Source of the DNA: a virus
Lineage: Duplodnaviria > Caudoviricetes
Reading direction: 5' to 3' (one strand)
Length of the DNA: 28,457 nt
Virus record (IMG/VR): IMGVR_UViG_3300037524_001174
Coordinates: 1 to 28,457 of that record
Shown: one piece after another, positions 2,993 through 23,279 of the stretch
How the letters are laid out: every line of letters starts with the position of its first letter
Numbering within the stretch: the first letter of the stretch is position 1
Notes under the pieces: generated by a model
What the model saw: the letters and a program-made list of their open reading frames with translations, nothing else
What the model was told of the DNA's origin: nothing
Databases searched by the model: none
Made by a program: the position numbers and the translations under genes

Positions 2993-3970
2993 CTACGCGG
3001 AGAGGTCGAGGGTACCGGCGTGCGTCTCGACCTTGCCGAAGCGAGGTCCGCCAGCCGTTGCCACCTCGATGGTCTTGGCGCCCCACATGCCCTTGTAGCC
3101 GACGATGGCCGACTGGGCGGCGGGGTCCGCATGGTCGCCACCGGGGCGGACCATGAACGTCTCGATGCTCTGGAGGTCACCGAAGGCGAAGTACTCCGGC
3201 CCGAACACCACGGTGTTGTAGGTGTCGGTCGCCCCCGCGTTGACCGTGCCCACGGTGGACTCGATGAAGCGGATGCCGTACATCCGCCCAATCTCGCCAC
3301 TGAACAGGTTCTCGGGGCTGCCGTACTTCGACGCCTCCAGCCAGCCGCCGATGGCGGTGTCGGACTGGAGGTCGTAGGCGACGGCCGGGTGGATGATGCT
3401 CACGTAGTTCCCATCGGGGAACGTGGGCACATTGGCCGTCTTCAGTTGGGCTGCCCACTTGCGGATGTCGCTGGCAGCGAGCCCGCTCCCAGCCACCGCG
3501 AGGGTGATGCCCGTGCCCGCCATGACGGCGGTTGCGATGGACTTGTCCACGGTCCTCAGGGCGTCCCACGCGACCCGCTCGGCCGCCACGGCCATGAGTT
3601 CGTGGGGGTTGAGGGCGAGGACCACGTCCGTCAGTTCGACCAGCCGCACGCGCTGGGCCACGTCGTACTCGGCGTAGCCGATGGTCAGCGCCTCGGTCGC
3701 GGGAGGGGTGCCTTCGACGGCGACCACCGGGTCGGTCGAGGACAGGTCGCCGTACGCGATGAAGCGGATGGCGTTCGTGCCCGGGACGAGCCGACCGGGG
3801 AGGTAGGCGCCGGGGAAGAGCCACCGACAGGCCGCCCTCAGGTTCTCAAGGACCGTCCGCTCCACGAGAGCGGTGACGGTCTGCCCGAAGTTGGTCGTGA
3901 CGGAGGGGGACCCCGCCATGGCACTGGAGGTTGATGCTCCAGTACCTGCAGAGATGGGAGTGTCTGGCAT
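2993..3970 (-). CDS. Major capsid protein, N4-gp56 family (HK97 fold)
   Basis: 325 aa with motifs EGTPP, VELTD, IIHPAVAYDLQSD, WLEASKYG..ENLFSGEIGRMYGIRFIES and VGYKGMWG. Confidence 0.88.
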   Translation of the reverse strand: MPDTPISAGTGASTSSAMAGSPSVTTNFGQTVTALVERTVLENLRAACRWLFPGAYLPGRLVPGTNAIRFIAYGDLSSTDPVVAVEGTPPATEALTIGYAEYDVAQRVRLVELTDVVLALNPHELMAVAAERVAWDALRTVDKSIATAVMAGTGITLAVAGSGLAASDIRKWAAQLKTANVPTFPDGNYVSIIHPAVAYDLQSDTAIGGWLEASKYGSPENLFSGEIGRMYGIRFIESTVGTVNAGATDTYNTVVFGPEYFAFGDLQSIETFMVRPGGDHADPAAQSAIVGYKGMWGAKTIEVATAGGPRFGKVETHAGTLDLSA

Positions 3971-7500: not shown

Positions 7501-10500
7501 CTCGGGCAGGGACGAGCGGTGTGCGTTCATCAACTTGGCCCAGCGCCTGAGGGACTCGTCGTCCATGGCGTGGAACACGGAAGCGAAGCGCGGGCCCATC
7601 ATCCTGTACCACCCGGCGGCGCCCTCGATTTCGGGGGCGGTCAGGACGCTCAGGAGGTAGCGCTTGTACTCCTCCGCGCCGCGCACCGGGTCCATGCCAT
7701 GGTCGGGGGCGAACTTGACGCCCTCCACCTCACCGACGAAGACCGGCTTGGTCTTCAGTTTCCCGGCCAGCGCCTTGTTCCCGGCGTTGACATGGGCGGT
7801 CATGTCCTTGTGCGGCTTCGACGGCAGGAGGTCGTTCGCCCTCGCCAGAGTCGCCTGCCACCTCGCGTCCTCCGGCCCGAAGAGTTCGATGCCGTACTCC
7901 TCGGCCCACCTGTCGAAGACCTGAAGGTAGGACCCGATGGGCAGTTGCCCGTTGTTGTCCAGCCACTGCGTGGAGCCGGTGAACGTGCGGGCGACGTACT
8001 CGTCCAGCGGGATGCCCTGCGTGACGGCCCCGGCCTCCATCATCGCCCTGAGCGTCTCCCGCGCCTGACCCCTCACGGCAGGGTCGTAGTCCACCACCGC
8101 GTCATCGAGGAACTGGTCGATGTCCGGGGCATTCGCCACCTGCCACGCCCGCTCGGCGTACTCGGGCGTGAGGCCCTCGCTGACCATCCCGTTCCTGAAT
8201 GTCCACTCATCGAGGCCCCCGGCCGCGATGTCCGCACGCATCGACACCCACGAGTCGTACCCCGCCCAGCGGGCGACGTGGGACCTTCGGACCCCGTCAA
8301 TCCTGCCGATGGTGTCGGGCTTCCCGCCATCCCAGAGGTGCAGGTGCGTCTCTGCCCTGTCCGGGTCCCGCCAGCCCTTGTGCTTCAGCCACCTGACGAC
8401 GACCTCCTCCCGGGAGAGCGGGACGTTCTCCCCAGCCGCCCGGGCCAAGTCGTTGAAGTGCGCCGAGACGCGGGCGTAGAAGGTCGGGCTCACCCGGTCC
8501 CACATATCCACCACGGCCTCGGCGTACTGCTTCCTGTGGGCGAGCACGTAGTTCAATGACTTCACGTCGCGGAGGCTCGACGTCCCGGCCGACAACTTGG
8601 CCGTCAGGCCCCCGAGGAAGGTCTGGGGCCCGGCATAGCGGTGCATGAGATGGGCACCGATGGTGCGGAACTCCCGGTTCTCCAGCCCCTCTGCAAGGTG
8701 GAGCGAACTGTTCATGGCCTCGATGACCATGAGGTGCTCCACGTCCTGCTCCTTCAACTTCCTCCCCAACTTGTACCCACGGAGGATGTTGTAGAAGTAC
8801 GGCTCGATGAACTCCTGCGCGAGGAAGATGGGGTTGAGGTTGAAGCGTATCCACGGGTAGACACGCTCCGCCAGCATCGACACGTAGTTCTGCCACGCCG
8901 TCGTCTGCGTCTTCAGGGCGCCCGTCATCTTCGACGTCAGGCCGACCTGCATCACGTCGCCCTCCATCGCACGAGCGACGAGGAGCATGTAGCCACGGTC
9001 CCCGATGCGGGTCTTCAGGTCGCGGGGGATGTCGGCCTTGTTGAGAAGGTCGCCCAACTCTGCGCGGGTGAACGCACGCATCGTCATCTCGCGGTCGCTG
9101 GCAGCCTTGCGGATGACGTTCCAGAGGGTGGCTGCCGACCCGTGGTCGAGCCCGAAATCCCTCACGCCCGACCTGATGAACTCACGCCGGTTGCGCTGCA
9201 GGATGTTCTCCGCACGGATAGGGGAGAACATCTTCTGGCGGATGACGTCCATGCGGGTCGGCGTGGCCACGTTCCCCGGCGTCACGTCGATGTCCATCCA
9301 CGGTGCGTACCCGACGAGGTTGCCGTGCTCGTCCGTCACGGCCCTCCACACCTTGTCGGGCGAGGGGGCGAGGCCGACCCTGTAACCCCGCCCCCCCAGA
9401 CGGCCCGCTGAGTCGTCAAGGTACTGGGCCACCGTCGGAGCGATGGCCCGCAACTTGTCGTCCGAGATGACGCTCACGAGGCTCTGGTTCTTGATGGCGT
9501 CTTCGAGGAAGACCTTCACCCGGTTGAGGAAGTCCACGTCGGTGGCGTCGTACACCGGGGAGTAGAAGTTCCTCGCCAACTCCTCGTAGTGGGCGACCGC
9601 GTCCTGCACCGCCGCCGTGCTCCCGCTCCCGATGTCCTTCAGGATGCGCTCGGCATCTTGGATGGTCAGCGTGCGGGGGCCGACGATGGTGACGCGCTGG
9701 ACGTTGGAGCGGTCGGCCTGCCGCTCGATGAGCCGCTTCTTCGCCTTGGCCCTCGTGCGGTCGATGCGGGCACGCCCCAGCACCGCCTGCGCGGCTGAGA
9801 TGCTCCCGTCAGCCACCCGGGCATCGACGTTCCTCGCCTCCACGAAGTCACGCGTCACCCTCCCCCAGTGGAGGTTGTGGATGTAGGAGATGGTGTCCTC
9901 GCTGGCGTCCCCCACCATGCGCCGGGCGGTCGCGACATCGATTTCGAGGACGTACGCCAACTGCTCGGCGGCCTGCTCCCTGAAGAGCCCCATCTGCCGG
10001 TCGTACTCGACGCGCCTCGCATCACCCTCCAGCCCGTGGAGGTCGGGCACCGGCTGGTAGCGCACACGCTCCGTGTGCCGCTGGACCTCCTGCGCGAGCA
10101 GGGAGTCGTCCAGCACGCCGTCCCTGTAGCCCTGCTCTATCTGCCTCGCCACTTCGCTGGGGGAGATGGCATCGGGCATGAAGGACGCGCTCTCGCCCTT
10201 CCCCCAGACGCGTGCCATCTTGGACAGGTTGTCCATCAGCAGCGACCGCTGCGAGTACGCCACGGCCCTTCCCAGCGCGTCGTGGTAGCGGGAGACGACA
10301 TCCGGCCCGAGGGCCGAGATGGCCTCCGACAGGCGATGCACGACGAGGATGTCATGCCCGTTGATGAAGCCCAGCACGGCCTTGTTCGCGAAGCGCTGCC
10401 CGAAGACCTTGCCGATGTTGTCCCTGCCGAAGATGCCCAGTGGCGAGTTCAGCATCTCGCTCACCTTGGCAGCGCCGTTGATGACCGGCGTGAGGCCAAT

Positions 10501-11769
10501 CTTGGCTCGGTCGGAGCGCGACATCGTGGACGTCACGTCCCTCACGAGGGACTGCACCTCAGGGGCGGGGTTCTGCATGAATGCGCTCACCATGCGCGAC
10601 TGGGCCGTCCCCTTCGGGGCGCCTCGCCTCACGATGGAACCGGCCTCCTCGGCCAGTTCAGCCGCGCTCCATGCCGCCTTCACGACGTTGTCCGTGCTGC
10701 CGATGGCCGCACGCGACAGGAGTTCGACGCGCCTCGCGATGGCCCCTGCCTTGGCTGCGTTGGCCGCCAGCCCGGTGCCGAACCCGGCCACGATGATGGG
10801 GTCGGTGAACACCTCGAACACCATGTTCACGAAGGGGTCGTTCGTGAACCCGGCCCCCATCCTGACTATCTCATCAAGGAACCTGTCTCGGGCGGCTTCG
10901 CCTTGTCCGTACTCTCCAGCCGCGTATCTCTCACGGATGGCTTCAATCTCAGGGTGGAGACTGCCCTTCGGAGCAGCCATGACATCCTCGATGCGATTGA
11001 ACCCACCAGCGTACGTCCTTTCCACGAGCATCTGGGGGATGGAGAGCGTCATCAGCGCCCGCTCCAGCAGCGTCGAGTCGGGGACGATGAGGGGGGCGAG
11101 GGCCTGAGGGACTTCCATCGCTGCGGCAAGGTCGCCCTGATGGGACCTCACGTACTGCGACATGTACCACTCAAGGTTGAGGGGGTCCGTGCGGATGCTT
11201 TCGAGGATGCGCGCCTTCTCCTGCGTCATCGGCAACTTCTCGAAGGCCTCTTCGGTGCTCGGGACCCACGGGAGAGGGACATGACCAGCGGCCTCGACGG
11301 GGATGTCGAGGATGGTGCCCACGCCGGAGGCGACGTTGACGATGGGGTCACGGATGAAGCCCGGGAGTACCCCCGTCACGAGCGACGTCAGGCCCCCCAG
11401 CACCTGCGACACGAACTTCTGGTCCGTCCCGAGGAAGGTCTGAGGCGACTGCTCAGGTGGGTTGACGACATCGGTGATGTTCGACACACGCGGGGGCGCG
11501 ATGGCCACGGAGAACTTCCCGAACCGCTCGATGTCGGAGTCTGGCACCGGGGTGCGGATGTCCTCGGGCGAGATGGCCGGGTAGCCGTGCATGCTGCGCA
11601 GGTAGTCCGTCGTCGGGACCCACCCGCCGTTGTGGCTGAGCGCCCTGCTCGCCGGGCCCCCGTCAGCACTCCAGCCTGCCGTGGAGTCCCAACTGGGCGC
11701 GTACGGCGCCCCGATGGGGGGCGACGGCATGGACGGCGCTGTGATGCTTCCCCACCTGTCCATGGTCAC
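4555..11769 (-). CDS. Giant (2404 aa) probable internal virion/ejection protein of large polyvalent type, with HhH-glycosylase-like and HExxH zincin modules
   Basis: Long ORF in the head operon, start overlapping the upstream stop. Motifs GWY...TSP...KLYDF...IDVW...Y...QAVAW (about 6670-7615) and TTLVHESFH...EEWVA (HESFH at 5473-5487). Confidence 0.7.
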   Translation of the reverse strand: MTMDRWGSITAPSMPSPPIGAPYAPSWDSTAGWSADGGPASRALSHNGGWVPTTDYLRSMHGYPAISPEDIRTPVPDSDIERFGKFSVAIAPPRVSNITDVVNPPEQSPQTFLGTDQKFVSQVLGGLTSLVTGVLPGFIRDPIVNVASGVGTILDIPVEAAGHVPLPWVPSTEEAFEKLPMTQEKARILESIRTDPLNLEWYMSQYVRSHQGDLAAAMEVPQALAPLIVPDSTLLERALMTLSIPQMLVERTYAGGFNRIEDVMAAPKGSLHPEIEAIRERYAAGEYGQGEAARDRFLDEIVRMGAGFTNDPFVNMVFEVFTDPIIVAGFGTGLAANAAKAGAIARRVELLSRAAIGSTDNVVKAAWSAAELAEEAGSIVRRGAPKGTAQSRMVSAFMQNPAPEVQSLVRDVTSTMSRSDRAKIGLTPVINGAAKVSEMLNSPLGIFGRDNIGKVFGQRFANKAVLGFINGHDILVVHRLSEAISALGPDVVSRYHDALGRAVAYSQRSLLMDNLSKMARVWGKGESASFMPDAISPSEVARQIEQGYRDGVLDDSLLAQEVQRHTERVRYQPVPDLHGLEGDARRVEYDRQMGLFREQAAEQLAYVLEIDVATARRMVGDASEDTISYIHNLHWGRVTRDFVEARNVDARVADGSISAAQAVLGRARIDRTRAKAKKRLIERQADRSNVQRVTIVGPRTLTIQDAERILKDIGSGSTAAVQDAVAHYEELARNFYSPVYDATDVDFLNRVKVFLEDAIKNQSLVSVISDDKLRAIAPTVAQYLDDSAGRLGGRGYRVGLAPSPDKVWRAVTDEHGNLVGYAPWMDIDVTPGNVATPTRMDVIRQKMFSPIRAENILQRNRREFIRSGVRDFGLDHGSAATLWNVIRKAASDREMTMRAFTRAELGDLLNKADIPRDLKTRIGDRGYMLLVARAMEGDVMQVGLTSKMTGALKTQTTAWQNYVSMLAERVYPWIRFNLNPIFLAQEFIEPYFYNILRGYKLGRKLKEQDVEHLMVIEAMNSSLHLAEGLENREFRTIGAHLMHRYAGPQTFLGGLTAKLSAGTSSLRDVKSLNYVLAHRKQYAEAVVDMWDRVSPTFYARVSAHFNDLARAAGENVPLSREEVVVRWLKHKGWRDPDRAETHLHLWDGGKPDTIGRIDGVRRSHVARWAGYDSWVSMRADIAAGGLDEWTFRNGMVSEGLTPEYAERAWQVANAPDIDQFLDDAVVDYDPAVRGQARETLRAMMEAGAVTQGIPLDEYVARTFTGSTQWLDNNGQLPIGSYLQVFDRWAEEYGIELFGPEDARWQATLARANDLLPSKPHKDMTAHVNAGNKALAGKLKTKPVFVGEVEGVKFAPDHGMDPVRGAEEYKRYLLSVLTAPEIEGAAGWYRMMGPRFASVFHAMDDESLRRWAKLMNAHRSSLPEIDLTDMAAVRVEVSARAFMAWAATQVQTSPRGGLGNLVQVIDETIRPGRQGKRPKVTFYKMQEKQMRGLIQHLETTLSSEGVAAKLYDFMDSVLGNEQRSWFKHHPNAPTFTRLDGTVVPMQPAAIDVWMKRDRGYIDSETIRFIAQKRAEAQSALPYRQAYEQELVRAQIELRAFEGKQITVEEVQPDGSIAKKKKDEPKERYYERKRAFEQEHGVELNDVYDKQPETPEYAASILRYNELTDAINQGEGWLGRSYANGNPWTVADIQAVAWEAMRRQYRAMESGPMAMFPQTGAQVAFEAVPSTSNRPFSEAFPFHGLDFDTQDIITGDMAKATLPIVSELTGVTITAVAPGRGGWKSPDGFSHTPNTAWELFGSAEQVDDARLCLTYLLQQDCVFSVSVPKPKVNGQPQTRSGRGRYWAFDFKMDGGGAQSADVLARYLHQHGIQWNGYMAAFDEQGNVGVRSLFTPRDEWSAENHIHVPDKSELADFEAMAPVPAELLSRLQDGTWIQELGGETPVPVRFERNLYDSNGTFASFSDDMDRVDARVAEGVSREVALREELGKSILDELTARGRGDVAAALADRHLGTVIAAGDDAFKRAAPDVWARERGIESLKAAFPSGAADAEVAAAQRVLLQRRGRGWAGATAFDADSRATFYLNRQKADLTTLVHESFHTFARNLQPSAIEAIHDIYAAARRKPRPTTKTLSRDAEEWVAAQYENYVAKGFVEDPSLRLPHILNAYADWGRRVGRTTGQFDPRLQSLFDSVTPEVHGRNMSVWDPQQFMLAEAARIAWSASEEAAFKTHYYARGRSWLERSANHPYLGLYPLSYMWGKVLPELMRFLIEKPFGVDAPFAGLAMANHVWEAIQLELNTDDGIADFVAQMPETLHLLELMLPGTPWNLPVNMPAWTRRLGAAALQGDEVTLGSIGSALTDTFAYAFGPGRAPRDVLRLADELTEAMSGQQAPIAPPSGMTPPTGVQ

Positions 11770-14639
11770 CGTATCCGGGTGCCGCTACCGCGTGGGTTCC
11801 ACCGCTCGTCCGCCTCCTCTTCCGTGGGGTTGAGTTGCTCCTGCGTCGGGACCGACGAGGACGGAGGGTGGAAGTTCGCCCCGCTGGAGTCGCTCGGAGG
11901 TGTCCACGAGCCACCACGGCTCCTGCCGCTCCCGGTAGTCGGGGGAGGAGGCGGAGAGCCACCGAATGTGACGGTAGGCGGCGGAGGCTGGAACGTCGGC
12001 ATCTGGACGACAGGCGCGACGGGCGTGGGCGGGGGAGGAGGTGCACCCGGGGCCAGCCCGCCCTCGTCGGACAATGGAGCCACGCCCGGGAGGTGGGGGA
12101 CCTTCACCGTCGGCTGCTGTGCTCCCCTGTCGAGGTCTGGGACCGGAGGAGGACCGGGGAGGTCGATGACGTCACCGATGGCCCTCCCGATGCCGCCGAG
12201 GATGTCCATGACGCCACCGGCCGCGTTCCCGATGGTGGTGGCCGCATTCTGGGCACCGGACACGACCCCGCGCCCGGCCATCGAGATGCGGTCAGTCTCG
12301 TCTGCCGTCTCACCCATGGCTGCGGCCATGCGGTCCCACGAGGCCCAATCGATACGAGACGCCCAGTCCGACCCGGCCCCGGCCCCAGCGCCGATGCGCG
12401 GGTTGCTGGAGCCCTCTGCGGCAGCGGCGGCCTCTCCGGGCGACAGGCGCATGCTGTCGGACAGCCCCATCAGCGACCGATACGCCTCACCGTAGGTCTG
12501 CCCGACCATGTTGGGCTCCTGCGCGATGACGTTGAGGAGTTCGGCCTCTCGGCCACGGAACGCCTCGGCCAGCGTGGGGTTGTTCATCAGGTTGGCGATG
12601 ATGCTCGATGGCGAGGAGAGGTACGGGGTGTTGAAAGCCAGCCCCTGCTGGACTGCGTACGCCTCAGACCCCATGCTCCCGGGGAGCATGTTCTCCACAG
12701 GCCCGGCCTGCGAGGGGACATTCGGGACCCCGGCCTGACCCCAGCGCTGCTCGATGCCCTCATCGATTGCCCGCACGGCGTCGGAGATGGCCTGCTCGTC
12801 CATGGCGTTGCCCATGGACACGTAGCCGTCCCCGACCTGAACGATGCCAGCGGTCCGAAGCATCGACGCCCTATCGGCGGCAGCAGCCGCCTGCTCGGCC
12901 TCGAACTCGTCCTGCTCGGCCTGCTCCTCGGGCGTCCTGTAGAGGTCCACCCCGGGCGGCTCGAACGCCGTCCTGATGCGGTTGAGGGACGTGTCCGACT
13001 GGTTGACCATGACGTACCCGTCGCGGTCGCTCTTGAGGAGCATCCCCGTGCTGCGCATCGCGGCATCGCCGGTCCACGAAGGCACCACGGTCCCGTCGGC
13101 ACGTGAGAGATATCGGACGAACATCCTCTGGCCGTCGTACTCGGCCACGTACAACTCGGCGTCGGTCGAGTCAGGCGTGAGGTACACCGGCTTCAGCGGG
13201 ACCGCCACCGGGACGATGGTCCCATCGGGGGACACCTGCGTCACGAGGGCCATCCGGCCAGCCGCCATCGGCTCCTCGATGAAGGAGTGGACGGTGAAGC
13301 GCTGCTCGTAGGAGATGGCCCCGGTGGGTGACTCCGGCTGCTGGATGACGTACATCCCGCCACTGCGGATGCCCTGAGCCCAGACGTTCATCTGGGCCTC
13401 GACCATCGCGACTTCCTGCATCGTCTGCGAGCCGCCCCACACCGGGTTCCCGCCCACGAGGCGTATCGTCTCGGTGTTCCCGCTGAGGGCCGCGATGCTG
13501 TTGCGCACCTCGCCTGCTGCGGCGTAGTCCTTGGCCTGCATGAACTTGGCGTAGGCGCGCTGGAGGTCACCGATGAAGGCCTGCTTGTCGGCGCCCGTCC
13601 ACTGCAGCGGGTCGGTGGCCCCGGAGATGGCCTCCTGATACGCGTCGTACCCGTCCATGATGTCGTCGGCGGCCGAGAGCCTCGTGTCGAGGGCGCGGGC
13701 AGCGCGCACGTCACGCATGTCCTCCCTGAAGGAGGCGACATGGGACGAGAGGTCCCCGGGGTAGGCCTTGGCAGCGGCCACCTGCATCCTGATGCCCTGC
13801 TGCGCACGCCTCGACAGCCGTTCGAGGAGGTCGAGGGACAGCCCGCCGTGGTACAGGCCATCCGGCAGCGCACGCTGCAACTGGCGCTTCAGGTAGGGCC
13901 ACGACGGGTCGCTCTGGACCCCGTCTGCCAGCGCCTCCCAGAGCCCAGAGGCGGCGCCTGTCTCCATGTCGAGGATATTCCCGCCCTCGGGCAGGAGCCC
14001 ACGGGCCTGCGCGAACGCGTTGAGTGCCGACATGACGGTCTTCATCGGCTGGACGTACTCGCGTTCGATGGCGTTGACGCGTGCGACGTACTGCTTGTAC
14101 TCGGCGGCAGGGTCGGTGGTCTTCGTGGCGCTCCTCGACCGCTGCTGGGCGAGGGCCGCAGCACGGGAGTACTGCGCCGCAGAGGCCATGAGGTCGCGGT
14201 AGGCCGCACTCCTGCGGGGGAGCCTGCGTGCCCACTGCGTGTAGAACCCACGCATGGCGGCATTGGCTGCGCTCTGCGCGCTGGCGTAGGCGGCAGCCCC
14301 TCCCCTCGTGCTCGTGTCGATGCGAGCGGCAGAGGCGAGGGCGCGCTGGTACTTCAGGTTCGCCTTCTGCTCAGCGATGGTGAAGCGGTACTGCCAGAGG
14401 CGGTTGTTCCATTCGTCCCACAGCGGGTCGTCCTTGTCGAGTTCGTCACGCCTCGACTTGATGTGGGAGAGGAGCATCGCGTCGGTGACCTTGCGGCCCT
14501 CGTACTCGCCGCCGTTCTCCCACGCGTCGAACATGTTCTGGTCCTGCTGCGCCCGGTACTGGCGCATCATGGCCACGATGGACGCAGTGAGGTCAGGCGC
14601 TTCCCTGAGCGTCCTCCCGAACCTGCCGATGCGCGCCAT
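11766..14639 (-). CDS. Probable internal virion protein (957 aa) with a Pro-rich C-terminus
   Basis: Long Ala-rich helical ORF, translationally coupled to portal (shared base 14639) and to the 2404-aa gene. Function inferred from position only. Confidence 0.55.
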   Translation of the reverse strand: MARIGRFGRTLREAPDLTASIVAMMRQYRAQQDQNMFDAWENGGEYEGRKVTDAMLLSHIKSRRDELDKDDPLWDEWNNRLWQYRFTIAEQKANLKYQRALASAARIDTSTRGGAAAYASAQSAANAAMRGFYTQWARRLPRRSAAYRDLMASAAQYSRAAALAQQRSRSATKTTDPAAEYKQYVARVNAIEREYVQPMKTVMSALNAFAQARGLLPEGGNILDMETGAASGLWEALADGVQSDPSWPYLKRQLQRALPDGLYHGGLSLDLLERLSRRAQQGIRMQVAAAKAYPGDLSSHVASFREDMRDVRAARALDTRLSAADDIMDGYDAYQEAISGATDPLQWTGADKQAFIGDLQRAYAKFMQAKDYAAAGEVRNSIAALSGNTETIRLVGGNPVWGGSQTMQEVAMVEAQMNVWAQGIRSGGMYVIQQPESPTGAISYEQRFTVHSFIEEPMAAGRMALVTQVSPDGTIVPVAVPLKPVYLTPDSTDAELYVAEYDGQRMFVRYLSRADGTVVPSWTGDAAMRSTGMLLKSDRDGYVMVNQSDTSLNRIRTAFEPPGVDLYRTPEEQAEQDEFEAEQAAAAADRASMLRTAGIVQVGDGYVSMGNAMDEQAISDAVRAIDEGIEQRWGQAGVPNVPSQAGPVENMLPGSMGSEAYAVQQGLAFNTPYLSSPSSIIANLMNNPTLAEAFRGREAELLNVIAQEPNMVGQTYGEAYRSLMGLSDSMRLSPGEAAAAAEGSSNPRIGAGAGAGSDWASRIDWASWDRMAAAMGETADETDRISMAGRGVVSGAQNAATTIGNAAGGVMDILGGIGRAIGDVIDLPGPPPVPDLDRGAQQPTVKVPHLPGVAPLSDEGGLAPGAPPPPPTPVAPVVQMPTFQPPPPTVTFGGSPPPPPTTGSGRSRGGSWTPPSDSSGANFHPPSSSVPTQEQLNPTEEEADERWNPRGSGTRIR

Positions 14640-16678
14640 CAGACACCCTCAGTGGGCGGGATGGGCGTTCCTCCGGGGGCGATGGGCTGCTGGAAGAGCA
14701 GGCGGTTCGTGACCTCCCCGCCCTTCACCATCTGCTGGGCGACGGCGTTGTAGCCCTCACCCTCGACGGGCGCTCCACCACCCGGCGGCGGGGCGCCGGG
14801 AGTCAATGCCTCTGGCGGGAGGACGGCGCCCTCGCCCTGCCCGTTCAGCATCGGCATGCCACCCGGCGCCGCTGCAGCCGCCTGCGCGCCCAGACCACCC
14901 GGGGCCCCGCCACTGGGCGCCGGGGGTTGGGGCTGCTGAGCCATCTGCATCTGCTGCGTGGTCATCTGCAACTGCTGGAGTTGCGAGGCCAGAGCAGCCT
15001 GCGTCTGAACGTCGGCCGGGAAGAGCGAGGCGTCGGTGCGCTCCTCCTTGACCATCACGACCTCGGACTCCGGGTCCTCCACGCCGACGGCGTCCATGCC
15101 CCGGCGCAGGCTCCAGAGTTTCGTGTTCACGTTGTTGGCGGCCATGGTGGCCGTCTCGATTTCGTCCCTCGGGGTCAGCGAGGGCGCCTTCACCACGAGC
15201 CGCTGCGCCTGCTCGAAGGCCCCGCGCACGTCGGCGTCACGGTTGCCCCACACCGTCGTCACGAGGTCCCACACCTGCTGGCGCCAGCGGTAGAAGAGCC
15301 TGCGCTTCATGGCGATGCGCGCCTCGTAGTTGGCGACGAGGGCGTTGATGGCCTTGCCAGACGAGAGCACCTGCGCCGGGGCGAGCCCGCGCAGGAGGTC
15401 GTTCAATCCGCTCACATCGACCAACTCGCGGTCGATGCGGTCGAGGTAGGCGTCGAACTGGAACTCGGGCATCCACGGCTGGATTGGCTCGATGCGGTTC
15501 CCGGCGCCCGGGGCGATGACCCGGTCGGGCTTCGGCTCCATGCCGGAGGGGACCTTGTCGGGGGCCTCCGGGCCCGTCAACTGCCAGTACTGGCCACCCA
15601 CCGTCTTGGCAATCATCTGGCCGCCAGCACTCATCCGCTCGTCCTTCTCACGGATGAGTTGCTCGATGTCGTAGAACTCGCTGCGACCGTCGGGCACGCC
15701 CGGGATGTAGGTGTTGAAGACGGGGATGTAGGGGAGGCGGCCACCGTACTCCTCGAACTCCTCGTGCTGGACGAGGTGGTTGCCCACGAGGATGACGTTC
15801 TCGGTGACCATCTTGGTGGGCTGCCCCAGCACGATGCTGTCCTTGGGCTCCCGCTTCCAGTAGTCGATGACCTCGACCATGTAGGACTCGTCCCCGGTGA
15901 GCCACTGGCGGGTCCCGGGGCGGGTGCTCGTGGCCACGCTCCCGGGGTTCACCCTGACCACGGGGAGGCCGTCGAGGTTGCGGTCGATGTCGAGCCCGTA
16001 CTTCTCCATGGCCGTGAGGGGATGGATGCGGTAGGCGTAGACGACCCAGTCCAGCGTGCGGTAGTCGGTCCCGCTCCAGCCCAGCCACAGGTTGCGCGGC
16101 TGGTCAACGATGCTGACCGACGGCCGCCCGTTCTCCTCGTCCCACCAGACCTTGGCCGCCGTGCGGCCATAGAGGGCCTTGGTGGTCGCGGCCATGTGCG
16201 CGAGCGTCTCGAAGTCCACCTCGTCCTTCCATGCGAAGTAGACGCGCTCCACGGCGCTGGCCAACTCGCGGTTCATGGGGTCGCGGGGGTTGGCCGGGAG
16301 GATGTTCTCGATGGGGACGTAGGACTGGAGCGAGGCGGGCACGTCCACGTACACGGGGTAGACGTTGACGCTCACGTGCGTCCTGCCGGGGATGGAGCGG
16401 TTGACGTCTTCGGGCCAGTGGTCGGCCCCGAAGTCGGTGACGACGTTGGGGTAGTAGAGGTTGTCGTAGCGGTCGCAGAGGTTCTGGAAGCGCGACATCT
16501 CGGCGCGCTTCGTGTCCATCCTCGCGGCCACCTCGCGGAGGTACTCCGCCGCCTCCCGGTCGCCCATCTCCTCTGCGACACGGGCGTAGTAGGCCGGTGA
16601 GGGCTTTGGCCTGTCGACCACCGAGCGTGTGAGCATCGGGTGAAAGATACCACGCCCCGTGTCGGGAAGGCAGAGCAT
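14639..16678 (-). CDS. Portal protein (podovirus-like) with a Q/P-rich C-terminal tail; true start may be ATG 16636
   Basis: Directly follows TerL. Motifs ALYGRTAAKVWWD, LPYIPVFN...GRSEFYDIEQL, VSGLNDLLRG...SGKAINAL. The annotated ATG at 16678 lies inside a 15-bp hairpin. Confidence 0.82.
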   Translation of the reverse strand: MLCLPDTGRGIFHPMLTRSVVDRPKPSPAYYARVAEEMGDREAAEYLREVAARMDTKRAEMSRFQNLCDRYDNLYYPNVVTDFGADHWPEDVNRSIPGRTHVSVNVYPVYVDVPASLQSYVPIENILPANPRDPMNRELASAVERVYFAWKDEVDFETLAHMAATTKALYGRTAAKVWWDEENGRPSVSIVDQPRNLWLGWSGTDYRTLDWVVYAYRIHPLTAMEKYGLDIDRNLDGLPVVRVNPGSVATSTRPGTRQWLTGDESYMVEVIDYWKREPKDSIVLGQPTKMVTENVILVGNHLVQHEEFEEYGGRLPYIPVFNTYIPGVPDGRSEFYDIEQLIREKDERMSAGGQMIAKTVGGQYWQLTGPEAPDKVPSGMEPKPDRVIAPGAGNRIEPIQPWMPEFQFDAYLDRIDRELVDVSGLNDLLRGLAPAQVLSSGKAINALVANYEARIAMKRRLFYRWRQQVWDLVTTVWGNRDADVRGAFEQAQRLVVKAPSLTPRDEIETATMAANNVNTKLWSLRRGMDAVGVEDPESEVVMVKEERTDASLFPADVQTQAALASQLQQLQMTTQQMQMAQQPQPPAPSGGAPGGLGAQAAAAAPGGMPMLNGQGEGAVLPPEALTPGAPPPGGGAPVEGEGYNAVAQQMVKGGEVTNRLLFQQPIAPGGTPIPPTEGV

Positions 16679-16725: not shown

Positions 16726-18312
16726 TCACAAGTTCAGCCCGACTCGCCTCAGTCGGTGGGAGATATGGCGGTCGCGGCGCTCCTCGTCCGTCTCCTCGGT
16801 GGCCTCTACCGCGGGGGGCAGGACGGGGGCAGCGGGGGCAGGCTGCCAGAACGAGAAGGGAGCCGAGTCCTTGGCGTCGCTCATCTGGCGCATGAGTTGC
16901 TTCACGGCCACCGCCAATGCCATCACGGCGTCCTGCTCAATCTTGCGGTCATCGATGACGTAGGCGAGGAGTTGCCTGCGGAGTTCGAGCCACGGACCAT
17001 GCCTCGGGAAGCGCAGGCGGCCCTGCTCGATGAGGCCCTTCAGGTCGGTGATGAGCCGCATCTTCACCTTGCGCGTCCCGCCGAACTCCACGCTGTGGAG
17101 GGGGTGGACGCCTTCGAGCATCTGCCTGAAGACCTTCCCGCCCATGCCGGTGGTGTCGAGGGCCGTCTCGCACCACGCCCCCTTGCGCGAGTAGGCGAAG
17201 TGCGTCTGGCGCACCATCTCGGCCACGTCGGTGACCTTCTGCTTGCCCTTGCGCCGCTGCGCGAGGACACCCGTGAAGCGGCCCTTCTCGTGGGCGTCGA
17301 TGACGAAACTCCACGTGGCGTCGTACACGGCGGCCGGGTCCACCCCCTGCACGTAGCGCCTGCCCGGGAGGCATGGCTGCTGCTCTGGGAGGCTGTCGAG
17401 GAACATGGCGTCCACGGCGCGTGAGTCGAAGAAGGCCTTGCGGCCTTGGATGAAGTAGCCGTCCACGTTCTGGGGGCGGAGGTGCTCCGGGTACCCATCC
17501 ACGAGGCGGTCGAAGACGCTCTGCTCCAGCCCGAACCCGATGTTGTCGCGGGTGCTCATGCGGAAGGAGATGTTGTCTGGCTTACGGAGGGGGTTCTCGG
17601 GGTCCCCCTCCTTCCACACGTCAGCGAACTGGTTGAAGCCCTCGGAGGGGGTGCTGATGAGCCACAGCGGGCCACCCGTGGAGAGACGCCGGAAGTGCAG
17701 CACCTCGTTGACGACGAACTCCAAGTTCATCTCGAAGCCGCACTCGTCGAAGGAGATGCCATGCATCTCCTTGCCCAATGAGCCCACGGCCCTCTCGGCG
17801 GTGGTGCGGAAGTGTATCTGGGCCCCACCCAGCACCGGGTCGATGCGTATCCAGCGGTACTCCCCACGCTCCTTCGAGTCGTGCTTGAGGAAGTGGCCGA
17901 GGGTGTCGGAGAGCGGGCAGCCCCTCCTGCGCTGGGCCTCGTGCTGGCCCTCCACCAACTGGACGATGGCGAAGAAGACGAGTTCACCCACCTCCTGCTG
18001 GATGCCGAAGTGGTACCAGTCGTAGGGCAGGCGCGTGAAGCGCATCATGTCGGTGAGGTCGTCTGGCGGGGCCAGCCCAATCTTGTAGAAGGCGTGGTGG
18101 AGGACGCCTACTGCCACGAGGAGCGTCTTCCCTGCGCGGTTGCCAGCGCTCACCGTGACGGTCAGCCACCTCGGGTGGAAGAGCGACTCGTCCCTCTGCA
18201 GCATGGCATCCCAGATGCGTTCCTGCCCGGGGTGCGGGCGGAGGCCGAGGAGGTGCGCGAAGTGCGGGATGTCCCAGCGCGCTCGTTCGAGGTCTTCGGG
18301 GGTGACCTTCAC
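16726..18312 (-). CDS. terL: Terminase large subunit
   Basis: Walker A AGNRAGKT, Walker B ISFDE, coupling motif ISTP, and nuclease motifs GVDPA, ALDTTGMG and QDAVMALA. Confidence 0.92.
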   Translation of the reverse strand: MKVTPEDLERARWDIPHFAHLLGLRPHPGQERIWDAMLQRDESLFHPRWLTVTVSAGNRAGKTLLVAVGVLHHAFYKIGLAPPDDLTDMMRFTRLPYDWYHFGIQQEVGELVFFAIVQLVEGQHEAQRRRGCPLSDTLGHFLKHDSKERGEYRWIRIDPVLGGAQIHFRTTAERAVGSLGKEMHGISFDECGFEMNLEFVVNEVLHFRRLSTGGPLWLISTPSEGFNQFADVWKEGDPENPLRKPDNISFRMSTRDNIGFGLEQSVFDRLVDGYPEHLRPQNVDGYFIQGRKAFFDSRAVDAMFLDSLPEQQPCLPGRRYVQGVDPAAVYDATWSFVIDAHEKGRFTGVLAQRRKGKQKVTDVAEMVRQTHFAYSRKGAWCETALDTTGMGGKVFRQMLEGVHPLHSVEFGGTRKVKMRLITDLKGLIEQGRLRFPRHGPWLELRRQLLAYVIDDRKIEQDAVMALAVAVKQLMRQMSDAKDSAPFSFWQPAPAAPVLPPAVEATEETDEERRDRHISHRLRRVGLNL

Positions 18313-19173: not shown

Positions 19174-19196
19174 ACAGGAGAGGGGGTGCCCCTAGT

Positions 19197-19433
19197 CTAC
19201 GCCTGCTCGAACCAGATGTACACCCTCCCGTCCATGCTGCGAGAGCGCTGCTTCACCCCTCGCTCGGCCATGAGCGAGCGCTGCACGACCGTGAAGTTCG
19301 GACGCTGCGAGAAGGAGAGCATGGCCCCCTCCATCAGCCGGTCGAACCAGAGCGCCTTCGTGGCGTCCTTCACTCGCTGCACCTCCGCAGCGTCAGTGAT
19401 GACCTCGAAGTCCGTGATGGGCTGACCCTTCAT
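19197..19433 (-). CDS. Hypothetical protein (78 aa), first gene of the leftward operon
   Basis: GAAGGGAG RBS 6 nt upstream of the ATG; lies just downstream of the predicted promoter. Confidence 0.7.
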   Translation of the reverse strand: MKGQPITDFEVITDAAEVQRVKDATKALWFDRLMEGAMLSFSQRPNFTVVQRSLMAERGVKQRSRSMDGRVYIWFEQA

Positions 19434-19474
19434 GTCTGTCTCCCTTCGGTCGCTCTATGGGTGGCGGTAGAAGA

Positions 19475-19503
19475 AGTATACATCACGACTATAGGAGTGT
19501 CTA
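19475..19503 (-). promoter_or_regulatory. Sigma70-like promoter for the structural operon
   Basis: On the minus strand: TAGACA (19503-19498), N17, TATACT (19480-19475), about 40 nt upstream of ATG 19433. Confidence 0.65.
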
Positions 19504-19771
19504 CCCCTATAGTGTATGGACTCCCCTATAGGGGAGTCCTATATATGACTCCTATATATAGGAGCCCCGATAGGGGCTCCATCAGAGAGCCCCGGTAGGG
19601 GCTCTCTGTAAGGGTGGGGGGAAAGAAACTACTACTCCTATGACTGACACTCCTCCTATAGGAGCCCCTATCGGGGCTCCATGAGTGTGGGGGATATAGA
19701 CCACCTCCTATAGGAGCCCCTACGGGGCTCCATACATAGACTCCATGATAGATGTCCTCCTATAGGAGGAC
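19488..19771. repeat. Array of CTATAG-centred palindromes and GAGCCCC-N3/4-GGGGCTC hairpins
   Basis: GGACTCCCCTATAGGGGAGTCC 19518-19539; CTCCTATATATAGGAG 19549-19564; CTCCTATAGGAG at 19653 and 19705; GTCCTCCTATAGGAGGAC 19754-19771; hairpins at 19561-19580, 19583-19608, 19661-19680 and 19713-19731. Confidence 0.9.
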
Positions 19772-19998
19772 TATATATGGGTGGGGCTATGTATCAGAGA
19801 TGGGCTGCATCCCCCCAAGGGGGGGACGGCTCGGAGAGCCGGGGGGGTGGGACCCGGTACCCGTTGGAATGTGAGTGCATTGCCCGCACTCATGGGTGCA
19901 CACCGTGCACCCTCTCTCATTGCTCTCACGTGGAGGGATGGGTGGTTGTCGGACAGTCCGTCACCCATATCCCCTACCCATAGCCTGCACCTATAGGT

Positions 19999-20067
19999 CC
20001 CACCCATCTATAGCCTCCACCCATCTATATGCTCCCCACCCCTATATGCGTCCCACACCTATATGCC
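19999..20067 (+). repeat. Four imperfect ~17-nt tandem direct repeats (CCAC...CTATA(T)GC)
   Basis: cccacccatctatagcct / ccacccatctatatgctc / cccacccctatatgcgt / cccacacctatatgcc. Confidence 0.75.
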
Positions 20068-20196
20068 AGTGACATACACCCTCTCGGCGGTGAGCCCCTG
20101 CTCCCCATACCCCCGGGGAGTATCGGCCCACGGTGGGCGCATCCCCCTGCCCCGTGGGCCCATCCGGGCCCTGCCCGTGGGGCCATCCCCCTCGAC

Positions 20197-20281
20197 TACG
20201 TAGCCCCCTGAGCGTGGGCCTACGTAGGTACGTAGTCCACGTTACGTACCCCTCTACGTACTCCCCGTGCTCAACTACGTA
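20197..20281. repeat. Cluster of six TACGTA palindromes
   Basis: TACGTA starts at 20197, 20221, 20229, 20243, 20255 and 20276, plus CACGTA at 20295. Confidence 0.85.
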
Positions 20282-20311
20282 TTGCCATAGCCCCCACGTA
20301 GGCTCTAAGGT
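20282..20311 (+). promoter_or_regulatory. Sigma70-like promoter for the rightward (early-type) transcript
   Basis: TTGCCA (20282-20287), N18, TAAGGT (20306-20311). Predicted start site near 20318. Confidence 0.45.
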
Positions 20312-20313
20312 CC

Positions 20314-20754
20314 CCTCATCGCCGCCACGCACTGAGCGGCTCGCACGCAGGAGCAACCGAACACCGACCGCAACGCGACGGGAGCGCCGCTACCAGTCCC
20401 CTCGGGGGCCGGGCACGAAGGGCGAGTAAGCAGGGGGGTCGCCCCTGCGAACGGGAGCCGGGGTCGGGACGATTGCAGCACCGCCATCACGCAGACAGGA
20501 CCGGACCGCGAGGCACTCAGCCCCGTGGGCGCTACTAGCACCGTCCCGCGCTACGGCAGCGGGAGTGCCGCCCACGTTGGAGCATCTGACTGCAGCGTCA
20601 CGCTGCCGCCCCCGATGAGGGGCGGGGCGGATGCGCTCAGATGCGGTGCTGCCGCAGGTTGACGGTCCACCCGGCACCCTCTCAGCAGGTGCTGCCGATG
20701 TGCTTCATCCCGGCCACCCATCCCGTCGCACCCGAGCCCAGATGAGGCAGGGAC
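20314..20754 (+). ncRNA. Candidate ~440-nt highly structured non-coding RNA, family unknown
   Basis: No credible ORF. Nested long-range helices: 20314-20/20741-47, 20338-43/20733-38, 20375-83/20721-29, 20407-13/20709-15, 20457-62/20670-75, 20475-84/20643-52. Internal arms: 20430-48, 20524-76, 20582-644. Confidence 0.45.
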
Positions 20755-20802
20755 GACGGTCCCGGTGAGCCGGTGCACGGCGGGCATGGGCCCGCGCCCC
20801 AT

Positions 20803-20886
20803 GGGGGTCGTGAGCGACGGTCGCTCAGGTGGCTGTAAACCACCCGCCTTCGGGCAGCAGGGGTTCGACACCCTTGGCCCCCACCA
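20803..20886 (+). tRNA. tRNA-Tyr (GTA), class II with long variable arm and encoded CCA
   Basis: Acceptor GGGGGTC/GGCCCCC + A73 + CCA; D stem GAGC/GCTC; anticodon arm GGTGG-CTGTAAA-CCACC (GTA at 20835-20837); variable arm GCC-TTCG-GGC; T arm AGGGG-TTCGACA-CCCTT. Confidence 0.88.
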
Positions 20887-21090
20887 CCTCGTACCCTCCC
20901 GGCGGTCCACGCTACGGGCGTGGCCTGTATCAGCCGGGCAGGGCGGCATCCGCACCATGTCGAATGTCTCACGGTGCCTCGTCGGTGGCCCAGATGGTGG
21001 CCGACATGAGGGGTGGCAGCGACGGCCGAGAGGCACGCTAGCCACCCCGCCTCATCTCCCCCACGCCTAGCACCCAGAAAGGACCCACCG

Positions 21091-21360
21091 ATGTTCGCGT
21101 CCACCGACCTGTCCGCCCTCCGCGCCTCCACCGACCTGAAGGCCCAGCAGGACGCTCGCCTGCGCCTGTTCGACCTGTCGCTCACCCTCACCTGCCGCGC
21201 CGAGCGCGCCGCCCGTGGCGGTGACAAGGCGCAGGCCGCCGCCCTGTTCCGCGAGGCGGACTTCACCCTCTCGTGCCTGCCGCTGGGCGCCGCCGAGCGC
21301 ACGGCGGGGACGGGGTTCCTGCTCGACACCATGCGCCTCGTGAGCCCTGAGGGGCGCTGA
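21091..21360 (+). CDS. Hypothetical protein (89 aa, MFASTDLSAL...)
   Basis: GAAAGGA RBS at 21077; strong GC3 codon bias. Confidence 0.75.
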   Translation: MFASTDLSALRASTDLKAQQDARLRLFDLSLTLTCRAERAARGGDKAQAAALFREADFTLSCLPLGAAERTAGTGFLLDTMRLVSPEGR

Positions 21361-21441
21361 GGCACCCGGCCGAAGATACCCGCGCTGGCCACGCGGTGGC
21401 GCCCCAGCACGCTTAGAGGGGGCTCACTTGCACGAGGTGCA

Positions 21442-21506
21442 CCATGCCGAAAGGCCGCACGGGGTGCGGCCTCCACCGGGCGCCATCCCGGTGCTGATGA
21501 GGCTGG
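21442..21506 (+). ncRNA. Hammerhead ribozyme, type II topology; predicted cleavage 3' of C21473
   Basis: CCA-T-GCC | GAAA (21449-52) | stem III GGCCGCAC-ggg-GTGCGGCC | TC | stem I CACCGGG-cgccat-CCCGGTG | CTGATGA (21494-500) | GGC-TGG. All core nucleotides and three stems are present; intergenic. Confidence 0.9.
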
Positions 21507-21526
21507 CAACGAAAGGGCCCACGAAC

Positions 21527-21781
21527 ATGTCTCGCATCCTTGCCCTGCTCCGGGTCCGCCGCTGGGCCCCGGACGCCACGCTCATCGCAGTCTCGGAGCC
21601 TGATAAGCACGGGTTCTGCACCGTGCTGGCGCAGGGCACGCTCACCAAGAGCGTCCCCGTGCGGCGTGCATTCATCGTCCTCAGCGTCCACGTGGGGGGC
21701 TCCACGTGCCGGTTCATGTCGTGGACCAACGAACAGGATGCCCGGTCGGACTTCGACCGCCGCTGCGCGTGGGGGGTCTGA
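21527..21781 (+). CDS. Hypothetical protein (84 aa, MSRILALLRV...)
   Basis: GAAAGGG RBS at 21511; directly downstream of the hammerhead. Confidence 0.65.
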   Translation: MSRILALLRVRRWAPDATLIAVSEPDKHGFCTVLAQGTLTKSVPVRRAFIVLSVHVGGSTCRFMSWTNEQDARSDFDRRCAWGV

Positions 21782-21863
21782 GGACTCCCACACCCCGCGT
21801 GCCACACACCTGACACGCCCATCTGCCACAATCCACCCACGTAGCCCTGAAAGGACCCATCCG

Positions 21864-23279
21864 ATGGCGAAACTCGCACTCCCGAGGCTGCTCGACCGCC
21901 CGTCCGAGGTGGTCGATGAGCGCACCCGGTCATCCGTCGGGCTGGCCGGTGACATGGTCGTGGACGTCTTCTCCCCGGCCAACCTCGTCACCCCGGCGGC
22001 CACGTTCGTCGTGACACCGACCGACGTTTCGGTGGCCGTGGGGGTGCTCACCGACTCGTTCGTGGCCCCCCGCATCAACCGCCTGCTGGACGGTGTGGCG
22101 GGCGCCCCGCGCATCGAGAAGTACCACCGCACGGGTCGCATGGTGGCCCGTTTCCGGGGCCATCCGCGCCCGCTGCCGGTGTCATTCACGCTCCCGCTGG
22201 TGCCCATGGGTGCCCCCGGTTCGATGGGCGTTGCCCCCACCATCGTGCAGGCTGTCGCCCCGGCCCCCGTGCCTCCGGCCCCTGCTCCGGCCCCTGCTCC
22301 CGAGGCTCCGGCCCCGATGGTGCTCCAGCCGGAAAGCCCCCACGTCGCGCTGAAGGTCGCACCGGCCGCAGTCGATGCGCAGACGTGCGGGTGCCCGGCC
22401 GGTGGGTGCCTCTTCACGTACCCGGACCGCTCACGCGCCGGGCGCATCATCACCTCAGCCCTGACGAAGGCGGCCCTGAAGGCGGCCCTCGCCAAGCACC
22501 GCTCCGGCGAGCGCTCCACGGTGGCGCTCGTTGGCCCGAAGGGCACGGGCAAGACCGAGTTGGTGTGGGACCTTGCCGCTGCCGAGGGCATGGGCCTGTT
22601 CGTCTTCGACGGTGCTGGTGCATCGTCATTCGCAGACTGGACGGGCGCCACGGCGCTCGTCACCGAGGGCGGGCAGACGGTGACCCGCTACATCCCCTCG
22701 TCATTCATCGAGGCCATCCGCGTGGACGGCCCGCACGGTGACGAGAAGCGCCTCGTCCTCGTGGACGAGTTGAACCGTGCCGAGTTGGCCGGTGCGTTGA
22801 ATGCCCTCATGCCCATCCTCTCGGCCGGGAGCCTGTACATCCCCGAGACGGGCAGGACGGTGGTCGTGAGCCGCAACGTCATGTTCCTCTTCACGCTCAA
22901 CCGGGGCTCCGCCTACAACGCCACCATCACGCTGGACGCGGCGCTCAGCGACCGCATCGAGACGTGGGTGCGCACCGAGTACCTCCCCGAGCAGGACGAG
23001 ACGAACCTCGTCTGCGCCCGCACCGGGCTGGCCCCCGAGCAGGCCGCCCGCCTCGTGCGCGTCGGCCGCCATATCCGCGACGTGGCCGAGCGTGGCGAGA
23101 TTGACGATGGCGTCTCCACCCGCCGCATCCTCGTGGCGGGCAGCATGGTGTCGCAGGGCATGAGCCTGCGCGATGCCGCTGAGGTGTGCTGGGCCAACAT
23201 CTACCCGGACGAGGGTGGGAGCGAAGGCCAGCGCGGGCTCGTCATCACGGCCATCAACGCCGCCCTCAGCGCTTCCTGA
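21864..23279 (+). CDS. MoxR/CobS/CbbQ-like AAA+ ATPase with an N-terminal extension and Pro/Ala linker
   Basis: GAAAGGA RBS at 21849. Walker A GPKGTGKT, Walker B LVLVDELNRA, TLNRGSAYNATITLDAALSDR (Arg finger), sensor II STRR. Confidence 0.88.
   Translation: MAKLALPRLLDRPSEVVDERTRSSVGLAGDMVVDVFSPANLVTPAATFVVTPTDVSVAVGVLTDSFVAPRINRLLDGVAGAPRIEKYHRTGRMVARFRGHPRPLPVSFTLPLVPMGAPGSMGVAPTIVQAVAPAPVPPAPAPAPAPEAPAPMVLQPESPHVALKVAPAAVDAQTCGCPAGGCLFTYPDRSRAGRIITSALTKAALKAALAKHRSGERSTVALVGPKGTGKTELVWDLAAAEGMGLFVFDGAGASSFADWTGATALVTEGGQTVTRYIPSSFIEAIRVDGPHGDEKRLVLVDELNRAELAGALNALMPILSAGSLYIPETGRTVVVSRNVMFLFTLNRGSAYNATITLDAALSDRIETWVRTEYLPEQDETNLVCARTGLAPEQAARLVRVGRHIRDVAERGEIDDGVSTRRILVAGSMVSQGMSLRDAAEVCWANIYPDEGGSEGQRGLVITAINAALSAS

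Follow-up and report, generated by a model that had tools for sequence, protein, structure and literature searches.

A non-coding, self-complementary stretch ahead of a tRNA-like gene where the early genes of an uncultured GC-rich phage begin: a candidate RNA leader

Introduction

Where the early genes of a phage begin, a non-coding stretch can separate a promoter-like site from a tRNA-like gene; does such a stretch give rise to a large structured RNA? This question is raised by positions 20314-20754 of the record of an uncultured phage (28,457 nt, estimated 60% complete, GC ~67%), which was analyzed over its whole length; this 28,457-nt DNA is referred to as the window. The original prediction, made from the letters alone, had proposed a novel large structured non-coding RNA with nested long-range helices and a possible pseudoknot.

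There are precedents for RNAs of this kind. Phage T4 produces small stable RNAs of ~120-140 nt, of unknown function, that are co-transcribed with its tRNA cluster, freed by tRNA processing enzymes, and were shown to accumulate. Large ornate RNAs are described as RNAs that often occur in phages or prophages and beside tRNAs and are possibly co-transcribed with them (PMC5737381; 10.1101/2024.12.08.627333), and PMC5737381 places the GOLLD and ROOL RNAs often near tRNAs and in prophages. Here, we analyze the setting of the stretch, its predicted fold, its relatives, and the sequencing runs in which it occurs, and weigh the explanations that these data allow.

Results

Setting of the stretch and absence of a coding signal

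Third-position GC and family scans divide the record into a late module, on the - strand up to 19433, and an early module, on the + strand from ATG 21091 (Table 1). The placement given in the original prediction was borne out: the stretch leads the early genes of the + strand, with a promoter-like site upstream of it and a tRNA-Tyr called by ARAGORN downstream, and these flanks, on the strand of the early genes, are directly observed. The early module comprises the 89-aa ORF, for which no match was obtained in PHROGs or Pfam, a MoxR/CbbQ-type AAA protein, a VWA protein, and an HNH endonuclease. A separate 84-aa ORF (ATG 21527; 21527-21781, + strand) is indicated by its GC3 frame. The listed 579-aa AAA ORF (TTG 21540; 21540-23279, + strand) overlaps it out of frame, and the AAA gene therefore probably starts after 21781. 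In the virion module, the 2404-aa and 957-aa proteins had no sequence match in Pfam, PHROGs, or PDB; homologues of similar size are present in two relatives of the phage (G001 and G003). A tblastn search of 50,697 deposited phage records returned nothing for the terminase, which has many relatives in the IMG/VR and JGI metagenomes, the best of them at 66-68% identity.

Table 1. Positions of the features discussed, in coordinates of the window
Feature	Position	Strand	Remarks
Major capsid protein	2993-3970	-	Late module
2404-aa protein	4555-11769	-	Virion module
957-aa protein	11766-14639	-	Virion module
Portal	14639-16678	-	Late module
Large terminase	16726-18312	-	Late module; small genes beyond, up to 19433
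Repeat-rich divergent control region	19434-20281	.	Repeat families D1-D14 and hairpins; directly upstream of the stretch
Promoter-like site	19503..19475	-	Flagged by consensus promoter scan
Promoter-like site TTGCCA-18-TAAGGT	20282-20311	+	Ends 3 nt before the stretch; predicted start near 20318-20320
Non-coding stretch	20314-20754	+	Candidate 5' leader of the early transcript; promoter-like site before, tRNA-like gene after
Helices of the minimum-energy fold	20314-20/20741-47, 20375-83/20721-29, 20457-64/20707-14, 20475-82/20688-95, 20498-503/20663-68, 20504-17/20645-60		
Predicted core	20375-20729	+	Rod-like, closed by a 9-bp helix; junction with hairpins 20524-20576 and 20582-20644
tRNA-Tyr(GTA)-like gene	20803-20886	+	Called by ARAGORN
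First early ORF, 89 aa	21091-21360	+	GC3 frame; GAAAGGA upstream
Type II hammerhead ribozyme	21445-21515	+	RF02276; spacer between the 89-aa ORF and the ORF with ATG 21527

The 1.66 kb between the two modules (19434-21090) lack coding periodicity, and no third-position GC periodicity was detected anywhere in 19440-21060. The stretch, whose GC content of 71% is above the genome level, had been described as free of ORFs. This stands insofar as 20314-20754 carries no coding signal, which is a direct observation, but not in the literal sense, as ORFs of 34-275 aa do occur in the gap, as expected at 70% GC. Nine gap ORFs gave no match of weight in Pfam and PHROGs (best E 0.013, below its cut-off), and no translated similarity was found for 23 frame pieces of the gap compared with ~160 loci (best E 0.012). 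A decayed gene was also considered and was rejected on the outcome of this six-frame tblastn.

The upstream promoter-like site conforms to the pattern TTG[AC]C[AG]-N16-19-TA[AC]GGT, which occurs once in the window and once in G003 and was derived post hoc from these same two sites. The consensus promoter scan did not flag 20282-20311.

Predicted fold of the stretch

The base pairs quoted in the original prediction are exact, namely, GCGACGGGA (20375-83) with TCCCGTCGC (20721-29), GCAGCACCGC (20475-84) with GCGGTGCTGC (20643-52), and GGACCG (20498) with CGGTCC (20663). The minimum-energy fold of 20314-20754 has an energy of -221.9 kcal/mol and forms a rod of nested long-range helices (Table 1), with helix pair probabilities of 0.7-1.0, mostly at least 0.9; 9 of the 143 predicted pairs are G-U. 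All quoted helices are thus present in the sequence where they had been placed, but one of them is not used in this fold: 20475-82 is not paired with 20643-52 and pairs with the second copy of GGTGCTGC (20688-95). There are two possible partners for GCAGCACC, because GGTGCTGCCG occurs twice (20645 and 20688), and the distal one is used in the fold. The possible pseudoknot between GGACCG and CGGTCC was not recovered, since 20498-503/20663-68 is an ordinary nested helix in the minimum-energy fold.

In the window, GGTGCTGCCG occurs exactly twice, both times within the stretch, and inverted partial copies of it are found at 20475, 20537, and 20554. When one mismatch is allowed, its frequency over the whole window is not above chance (9 versus 6.4; 18 of 100 shuffles reach 9). 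The motif of the outermost helix is not special, because CCTCATC is common genome-wide (22 copies versus 5.5 expected).

Comparison with shuffles and with the genome

Compared with dinucleotide shuffles, the + strand of the whole stretch had a z of -2.62, and 3 of 100 shuffles folded equally well; the corresponding value for the - strand was -1.55, and ensemble diversity was 54.9 on the + strand versus 131.5 on the - strand. For the core (20375-20729), the minimum energy was -198.3 and z was -4.64, none of 100 shuffles being equally good, with boundaries that were chosen post hoc and for which a boundary-optimized control ranks the stretch 6th of 128; the centroid of the core is almost identical to its minimum-energy fold. 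An excess was also seen in perfect stems of at least 7 bp (20 versus 10.7 ± 3.3; 8 of 1000 shuffles get to 20) and of at least 8 bp (8 versus 3.1; 14 of 1000 shuffles have as many), and stems of at least 9 bp numbered 2 versus 0.9, a count equaled by 229 of 1000 shuffles. Measured against shuffles, the fold is moderately more than chance.

As a second and fairer yardstick, we used the genome itself, divided into 64 non-overlapping 441-nt segments in register with the stretch and folded on both strands (128 segment-strands, 20 shuffles each). On this scale, the + strand of the stretch had a z of -3.05 and ranked 15th of 128, and 21 of the 128 segment-strands attain -2.62. Its ensemble diversity, a measure of definition, ranked 6th of 128 (54.9 versus a median of 105.9), and its perfect-stem count ranked 4th of the 64 segments. 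The boundaries were also optimized for every segment by taking the best closed domain of at least 200 nt with a closing helix of at least 6 bp, which existed in 110 of the 128 segment-strands. The stretch was then 6th of 128, with a z of -5.76 (20475-20695), and was preceded by the repeat region and by four coding segments at -5.9 to -6.6.

The stretch is therefore always in the upper tail of its own genome and never an outlier. Folding energy no better than that of shuffles had been named as one outcome that would speak against a structured RNA. The energy does beat shuffles, both for the whole stretch and for the core, but it is not better than that of the genome's own segments: the coding sequence of this GC-rich phage gives equally good predicted structures. 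Folding z-scores in a phage with 67-71% GC, in which coding segments get to -4 to -6, cannot carry a claim of structured RNA.

Searches for known RNA families

The whole window was scanned with cmscan and the 4227 models of Rfam 15, and the sole match at gathering scores was Hammerhead_II at 21445. At E<=10, the matches inside the stretch were noise only: JUMPstart (- strand) reached 18.4 bits versus a cut-off of 35, and WT1-AS_1 and PhotoRC-I lay far under their cut-offs. The GOLLD covariance model (RF02032) gave no match at E<=10 in the whole record, and neither did the ROOL model (RF03087), a weak test, as this model was also silent in all 14 control genomes; in accordance, neither family appeared in the cmscan of the region at E<=10. 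Within 20314-20754, ribozyme models, hammerheads included, had no match; the group-II-D1D4-1 model gave none either, and ARAGORN found no tmRNA. The earlier statement that the stretch bears no signatures of RNase P, tmRNA, or group I/II introns thus agrees with Rfam (4227 models), ARAGORN, and the group-II-D1D4-1 search. As no family, GOLLD and ROOL included, matches 20314-20754, the stretch belongs, by these model comparisons, to no known family.

Homologues and relatives

A blastn search with 19900-21100 against the 50,697 phage records returned no homologue. Searches with 19434-21091 by blastn and nhmmer gave no match in 80 loci around terminase relatives and only chance matches in 151 terminase-relative loci (best E 0.037 over 31 nt), and the whole records of G001 and G003 contained no homologue of the region. 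Similarly, no copy of the stretch was found across IMG/VR by exact 24-mer, no homologue among 5.8 billion proteins with the 95-aa antisense ORF as bait, and no true relative in related-locus scans with the AAA protein, the 89-aa ORF, and the 78-aa ORF; one locus (L160), at 38% GC, was rejected as spurious. A scan of genome contigs yielded a single 45% relative.

The closest long relative, G001 (terminase 66% identical), breaks exactly around the region and lacks it altogether; its contig extends from the homologue of the 102-aa ORF to the small genes before the terminase. In G003 (L155, 15438-15600), the promoter-like site TTGACG-17-TACGGT is followed 13 nt on by a canonical tRNA-Leu(CAA) and then immediately by a ribosome-binding site and GTG, with no leader. 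G005 has a divergent gap of 368 nt only. Across this phage group, the leader is thus not conserved. Judging from the G003 sequence, the arrangement in which a tRNA comes first in the early transcript recurs once in the group. A 962-nt "gap" in G003, taken up as a possible analogue, was discarded, as it is coding (ribosome-binding site and GTG at 15589; fold z -1.29).

Flanking tRNA-like gene and hammerhead ribozyme

In the cloverleaf that ARAGORN draws for the tRNA-like gene, the acceptor stem has 7 bp, the anticodon loop carries GTA, the T loop reads TTCGACA, and the D arm is atypical; features of the identity type are present, namely, G1-C72, discriminator A73, a long variable arm, and the CCA of an encoded ACCA end. 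The false-call rate of ARAGORN was 2 in 200 shuffled windows. The tRNA covariance model RF00005 returned no candidate at E<=10 in the whole window, and it scores the tRNA-Leu of G003 with 53.8 bits. Because the gene fails this model, its recognition by RNase P is an assumption, and it may be either a decoding tRNA or a mere processing handle.

The firmest RNA feature nearby is a hammerhead that follows the tRNA-like gene at a distance of ~560 nt (0.7 kb past 20314-20754) and, as directly observed, lies in the same transcription unit. The RF02276 model gives it 38.4 bits (cut-off 37), with an E value between 1e-5 and 9e-7 according to the range of sequence searched. The core of the ribozyme consists of GAAA (21449-52), C17 at 21473, and CUGAUGA (21494-500), and its stems are stem III (21453-60/21464-71) and stem I (21474-80/21487-93), each capped by a loop, and a 3-bp stem II. 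A 4-bp pseudoknot joins loop I with the tail, as is described for most type II hammerheads in PMC3088659. The predicted cut is at 21473/21474.

A second Hammerhead_II was found in G005 (L082, 398-465; about 932-999 of G005), whose terminase is merely 44% identical, and keeps the synteny, its spacer being followed by a small gene and the AAA gene; none was detected in three complete lower-GC relatives or in the scanned stretches of G001 and G003. The hammerhead is hence canonical in sequence and conserved in a distant relative, with self-cleavage predicted. According to Perreault et al. 2011 (PMC3088659), phage hammerheads cut polycistronic RNAs into gene-length pieces. The type II element at 21445-21515 is like these in its place in an intergenic spacer, a likeness that concerns the neighbour and not 20314-20754 itself. 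Its synteny in G005 suggests that the early transcripts of this phage group are built to be cut.

Occurrence in public sequencing runs

All sequencing data were analyzed as Logan contigs, which give neither strand nor ends, and contigs from RNA libraries can contain DNA; two of the three RNA-library contigs were found through the query region itself. Metatranscriptome run X7 contained one exact 151-nt contig covering 20333-20483, which is a hint of a transcript over the stretch and not proof of one. RNA run X5 contained exact contigs of 19190-19454 and 19901-20146, the former of which lies outside the stretch by which the run was selected and ends 14 nt from the - strand promoter-like site (19503..19475). 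Over the 20 kb compared, X5 and X7 held no other long exact pieces, and the parts of the window left uncovered in them are no evidence of silence. Because cover of the control region in X5 and X7 is uneven, it is probably transcriptional, which we take as a weak hint; something upstream of the predicted early promoter is then probably also transcribed, on a strand that the contigs do not give. The X5 contigs span part of the repeat field, as well as the 78-aa gene that adjoins the control region.

DNA run X6 contained 20479-20697 at about 99% identity, with two substitutions and a 1-nt deletion at 20616 that falls in the loop of the predicted hairpin 20606-12/20619-25. Left of 20479 the contig diverges, 3 of its last 8 letters being different. 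Among the 8 pieces listed of 64, the seven others, from the 2404-aa gene, the portal, and the terminase, were 86-88% identical in six cases and 95% in one; the run was selected by words shared with the region, and the pieces may come from different phages. Recent exchange explains the near-identity of 20479-20697 as well as constraint does.

Discussion

The proposal of a novel large structured non-coding RNA was upheld in part. The stretch is non-coding, has a promoter-like site upstream and a tRNA-like gene downstream, matches no Rfam family, and folds better on the + strand; however, coding segments match its fold energy and definition, and no homologue was found. We therefore regard 20314-20754 as a legitimate candidate RNA, the selection of its fold being unproven.

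Our preferred reading, to which we assign a probability of roughly 0.45, is that the stretch belongs to a transcribed 5' leader (~485 nt) of the early transcript that folds into a GC-rich rod and is cut from the tRNA-like element by RNase P. The host RNA polymerase would start near 20319, and the first ~485 nt would fold into the rod co-transcriptionally. RNase P would then cut at 20802/20803 and release the leader, and processing of the tRNA 3' end, together with the hammerhead, would release a one-gene mRNA (20887-21473) as well as the remaining operon. In this model, we infer where transcription starts (near 20319), how the leader folds, that RNase P cuts it, and what role, if any, it has. 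Counting against the model are the unexceptional rank of the fold within the genome, the empty search for homologues, the lack of such a leader in G003 and G005, the limits of the RNA-library contigs, the failure of the tRNA-like gene with the tRNA model, the absence of a terminator-like site in 19300-21700, and the z of only -2.11 for the predicted RNase P product (20319-20802). As to a role, we tentatively favour, at slightly less than even odds, one that acts in cis on the stability, processing, or timing of the early precursor rather than one that acts in trans in an enzyme-like manner. The firm RNA biology of the locus is the conserved hammerhead and the tRNA-like gene that heads the early operon.

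The same data can be read in other ways. A new class of large trans-acting structured RNA (~360-480 nt), with a selected fold and freed with an RNase P-made 3' end, appears unlikely. It would account for the upper-tail position of the stretch on all four genome-wide measures (z, definition, optimized domain, and stem count), for the low z of the core and the near-coincidence of its centroid and minimum-energy fold, for the preference for the + strand, and for the failure of all known families to match, and GOLLD and ROOL are likewise placed by PMC5737381 often near tRNAs and in prophages. However, coding segments of the same genome do equally well or better, and with only 9 of 143 pairs being G-U, much of the signal is plain self-complementarity. 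Neither does the search for homologues, empty in every collection searched and with the stretch absent from G003 and G005, agree with a class of RNAs. That X6 retains 20479-20697 with its deletion in a predicted loop, while most of its other pieces are at 86-88%, would suit a selected fold, but this identity is due in part to the way the run was chosen and may reflect recent exchange, and the contig diverges left of 20479.

Alternatively, the stretch could be a functionless spacer or recent insertion between promoter and tRNA, carried or swapped among related phages, with its structure a by-product of high GC. The near-identity in X6, compared with 86-88% in six of the seven other listed pieces, fits this view, and so does G003, in which the promoter-like site lies 13 nt before the tRNA with nothing between; moreover, 20 to 33 of the 128 segment-strands attain the z of the stretch, depending on the scan. 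Phage genomes are compact, though, and 440 nt of inert DNA heading an early operon would be unusual. The stretch shows no sign of mobility, with one copy in the record and none in IMG/VR by exact 24-mer, and its enrichment in stems over shuffles is real (8 of 1000). We consider a spacer of this type doubtful, to the same degree as the trans-acting class. An element acting at the DNA level (operators, a replication origin, or a packaging signal) would continue the repeat region on its left, its helices being by-products of inverted binding sites. The stretch does adjoin 0.85 kb of dense direct and inverted repeats, whose self-complementarity is far above its own; both copies of GGTGCTGCCG and the inverted partial copies lie in it; and Watson-Crick stems are symmetric between strands. 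Yet it is richer in GC than the genome, unlike typical origins, it has no iteron-like family of direct repeats of its own, GGTGCTGCCG with one mismatch is at chance level, and the fold statistics differ by strand, which together make a DNA element distinctly improbable.

Returning to the leader reading, the stretch may be said to resemble, in kind, phage non-coding RNAs co-transcribed with tRNAs and, in logic, RNAs with RNase P-made 3' ends. It would be of the same kind as the T4 stable RNAs, a phage RNA beside a tRNA, but differs from them in its predicted length of ~485 nt and in that a discrete species is only proposed. With GOLLD and ROOL it shares a large non-coding RNA, a tRNA neighbour, and a phage setting, whereas those RNAs have many multistem junctions and pseudoknots and the fold predicted here is a simple rod with one junction; in addition, no family of homologues was found for the stretch. 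In the MALAT1/mascRNA system, as described in PMC4824109 and PMC8457004, an RNase P cut at a tRNA-like element makes the 3' end of the long RNA upstream. The arrangement of a long non-coding RNA with a tRNA-like structure directly downstream is similar, but that system is eukaryotic and nuclear, the downstream element of the phage looks like a decodable tRNA-Tyr with CCA, and the RNase P cut of the phage RNA is a predicted one.

If the fold proved to be selected, an environmental phage lineage of high GC and without a cultured relative would have yielded a large structured RNA, and the locus would, in addition, be a bacterial-virus case of RNase P setting the end of a long non-coding RNA. Improbable in our view is the most far-reaching version, a new phage RNA class of ~480 nt that opens the early transcript of a high-GC podovirus-like phage, consisting of a rigid GC-rich rod that is freed with a precise 3' end by RNase P at an atypical tRNA-Tyr-like handle and acts in trans on the host, with the hammerhead cutting the same precursor farther along. 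Were it true, early expression would involve three RNA-level cuts, and the RNA could, for instance, decoy a nuclease or a defence protein of the host.

Two neighbouring regions deserve mention. The control region upstream is by far the most self-complementary part of the record, with a fold z of about -8 in the segment starting at 19432 and of -7.5/-4.6 in the segment starting at 19873. Its repeat field contains four GGAGCCCC-N4-GGGGCTCC hairpins (19557-19737), CTCCTATAGGAG palindromes at 52-nt spacing, an array of ~18-nt units CCCACCC..TCTATAG (19960-20066), paired CCCGTGGGCCCATCC, and TACGTA palindromes (20197-20280); promoters, operators, a packaging site, or an origin may reside in this field. 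Past the tRNA-like gene, a hairpin-like stretch (20991-21069) immediately precedes the ribosome-binding site of the 89-aa ORF and gave, on the + and the - strand alike, weak matches of the miRNA-precursor type. Its left arm shares a direct repeat (20800-20823/21005-21028, 75%) with the 5' part of the tRNA-like gene, and this stretch may be a decayed tRNA copy.
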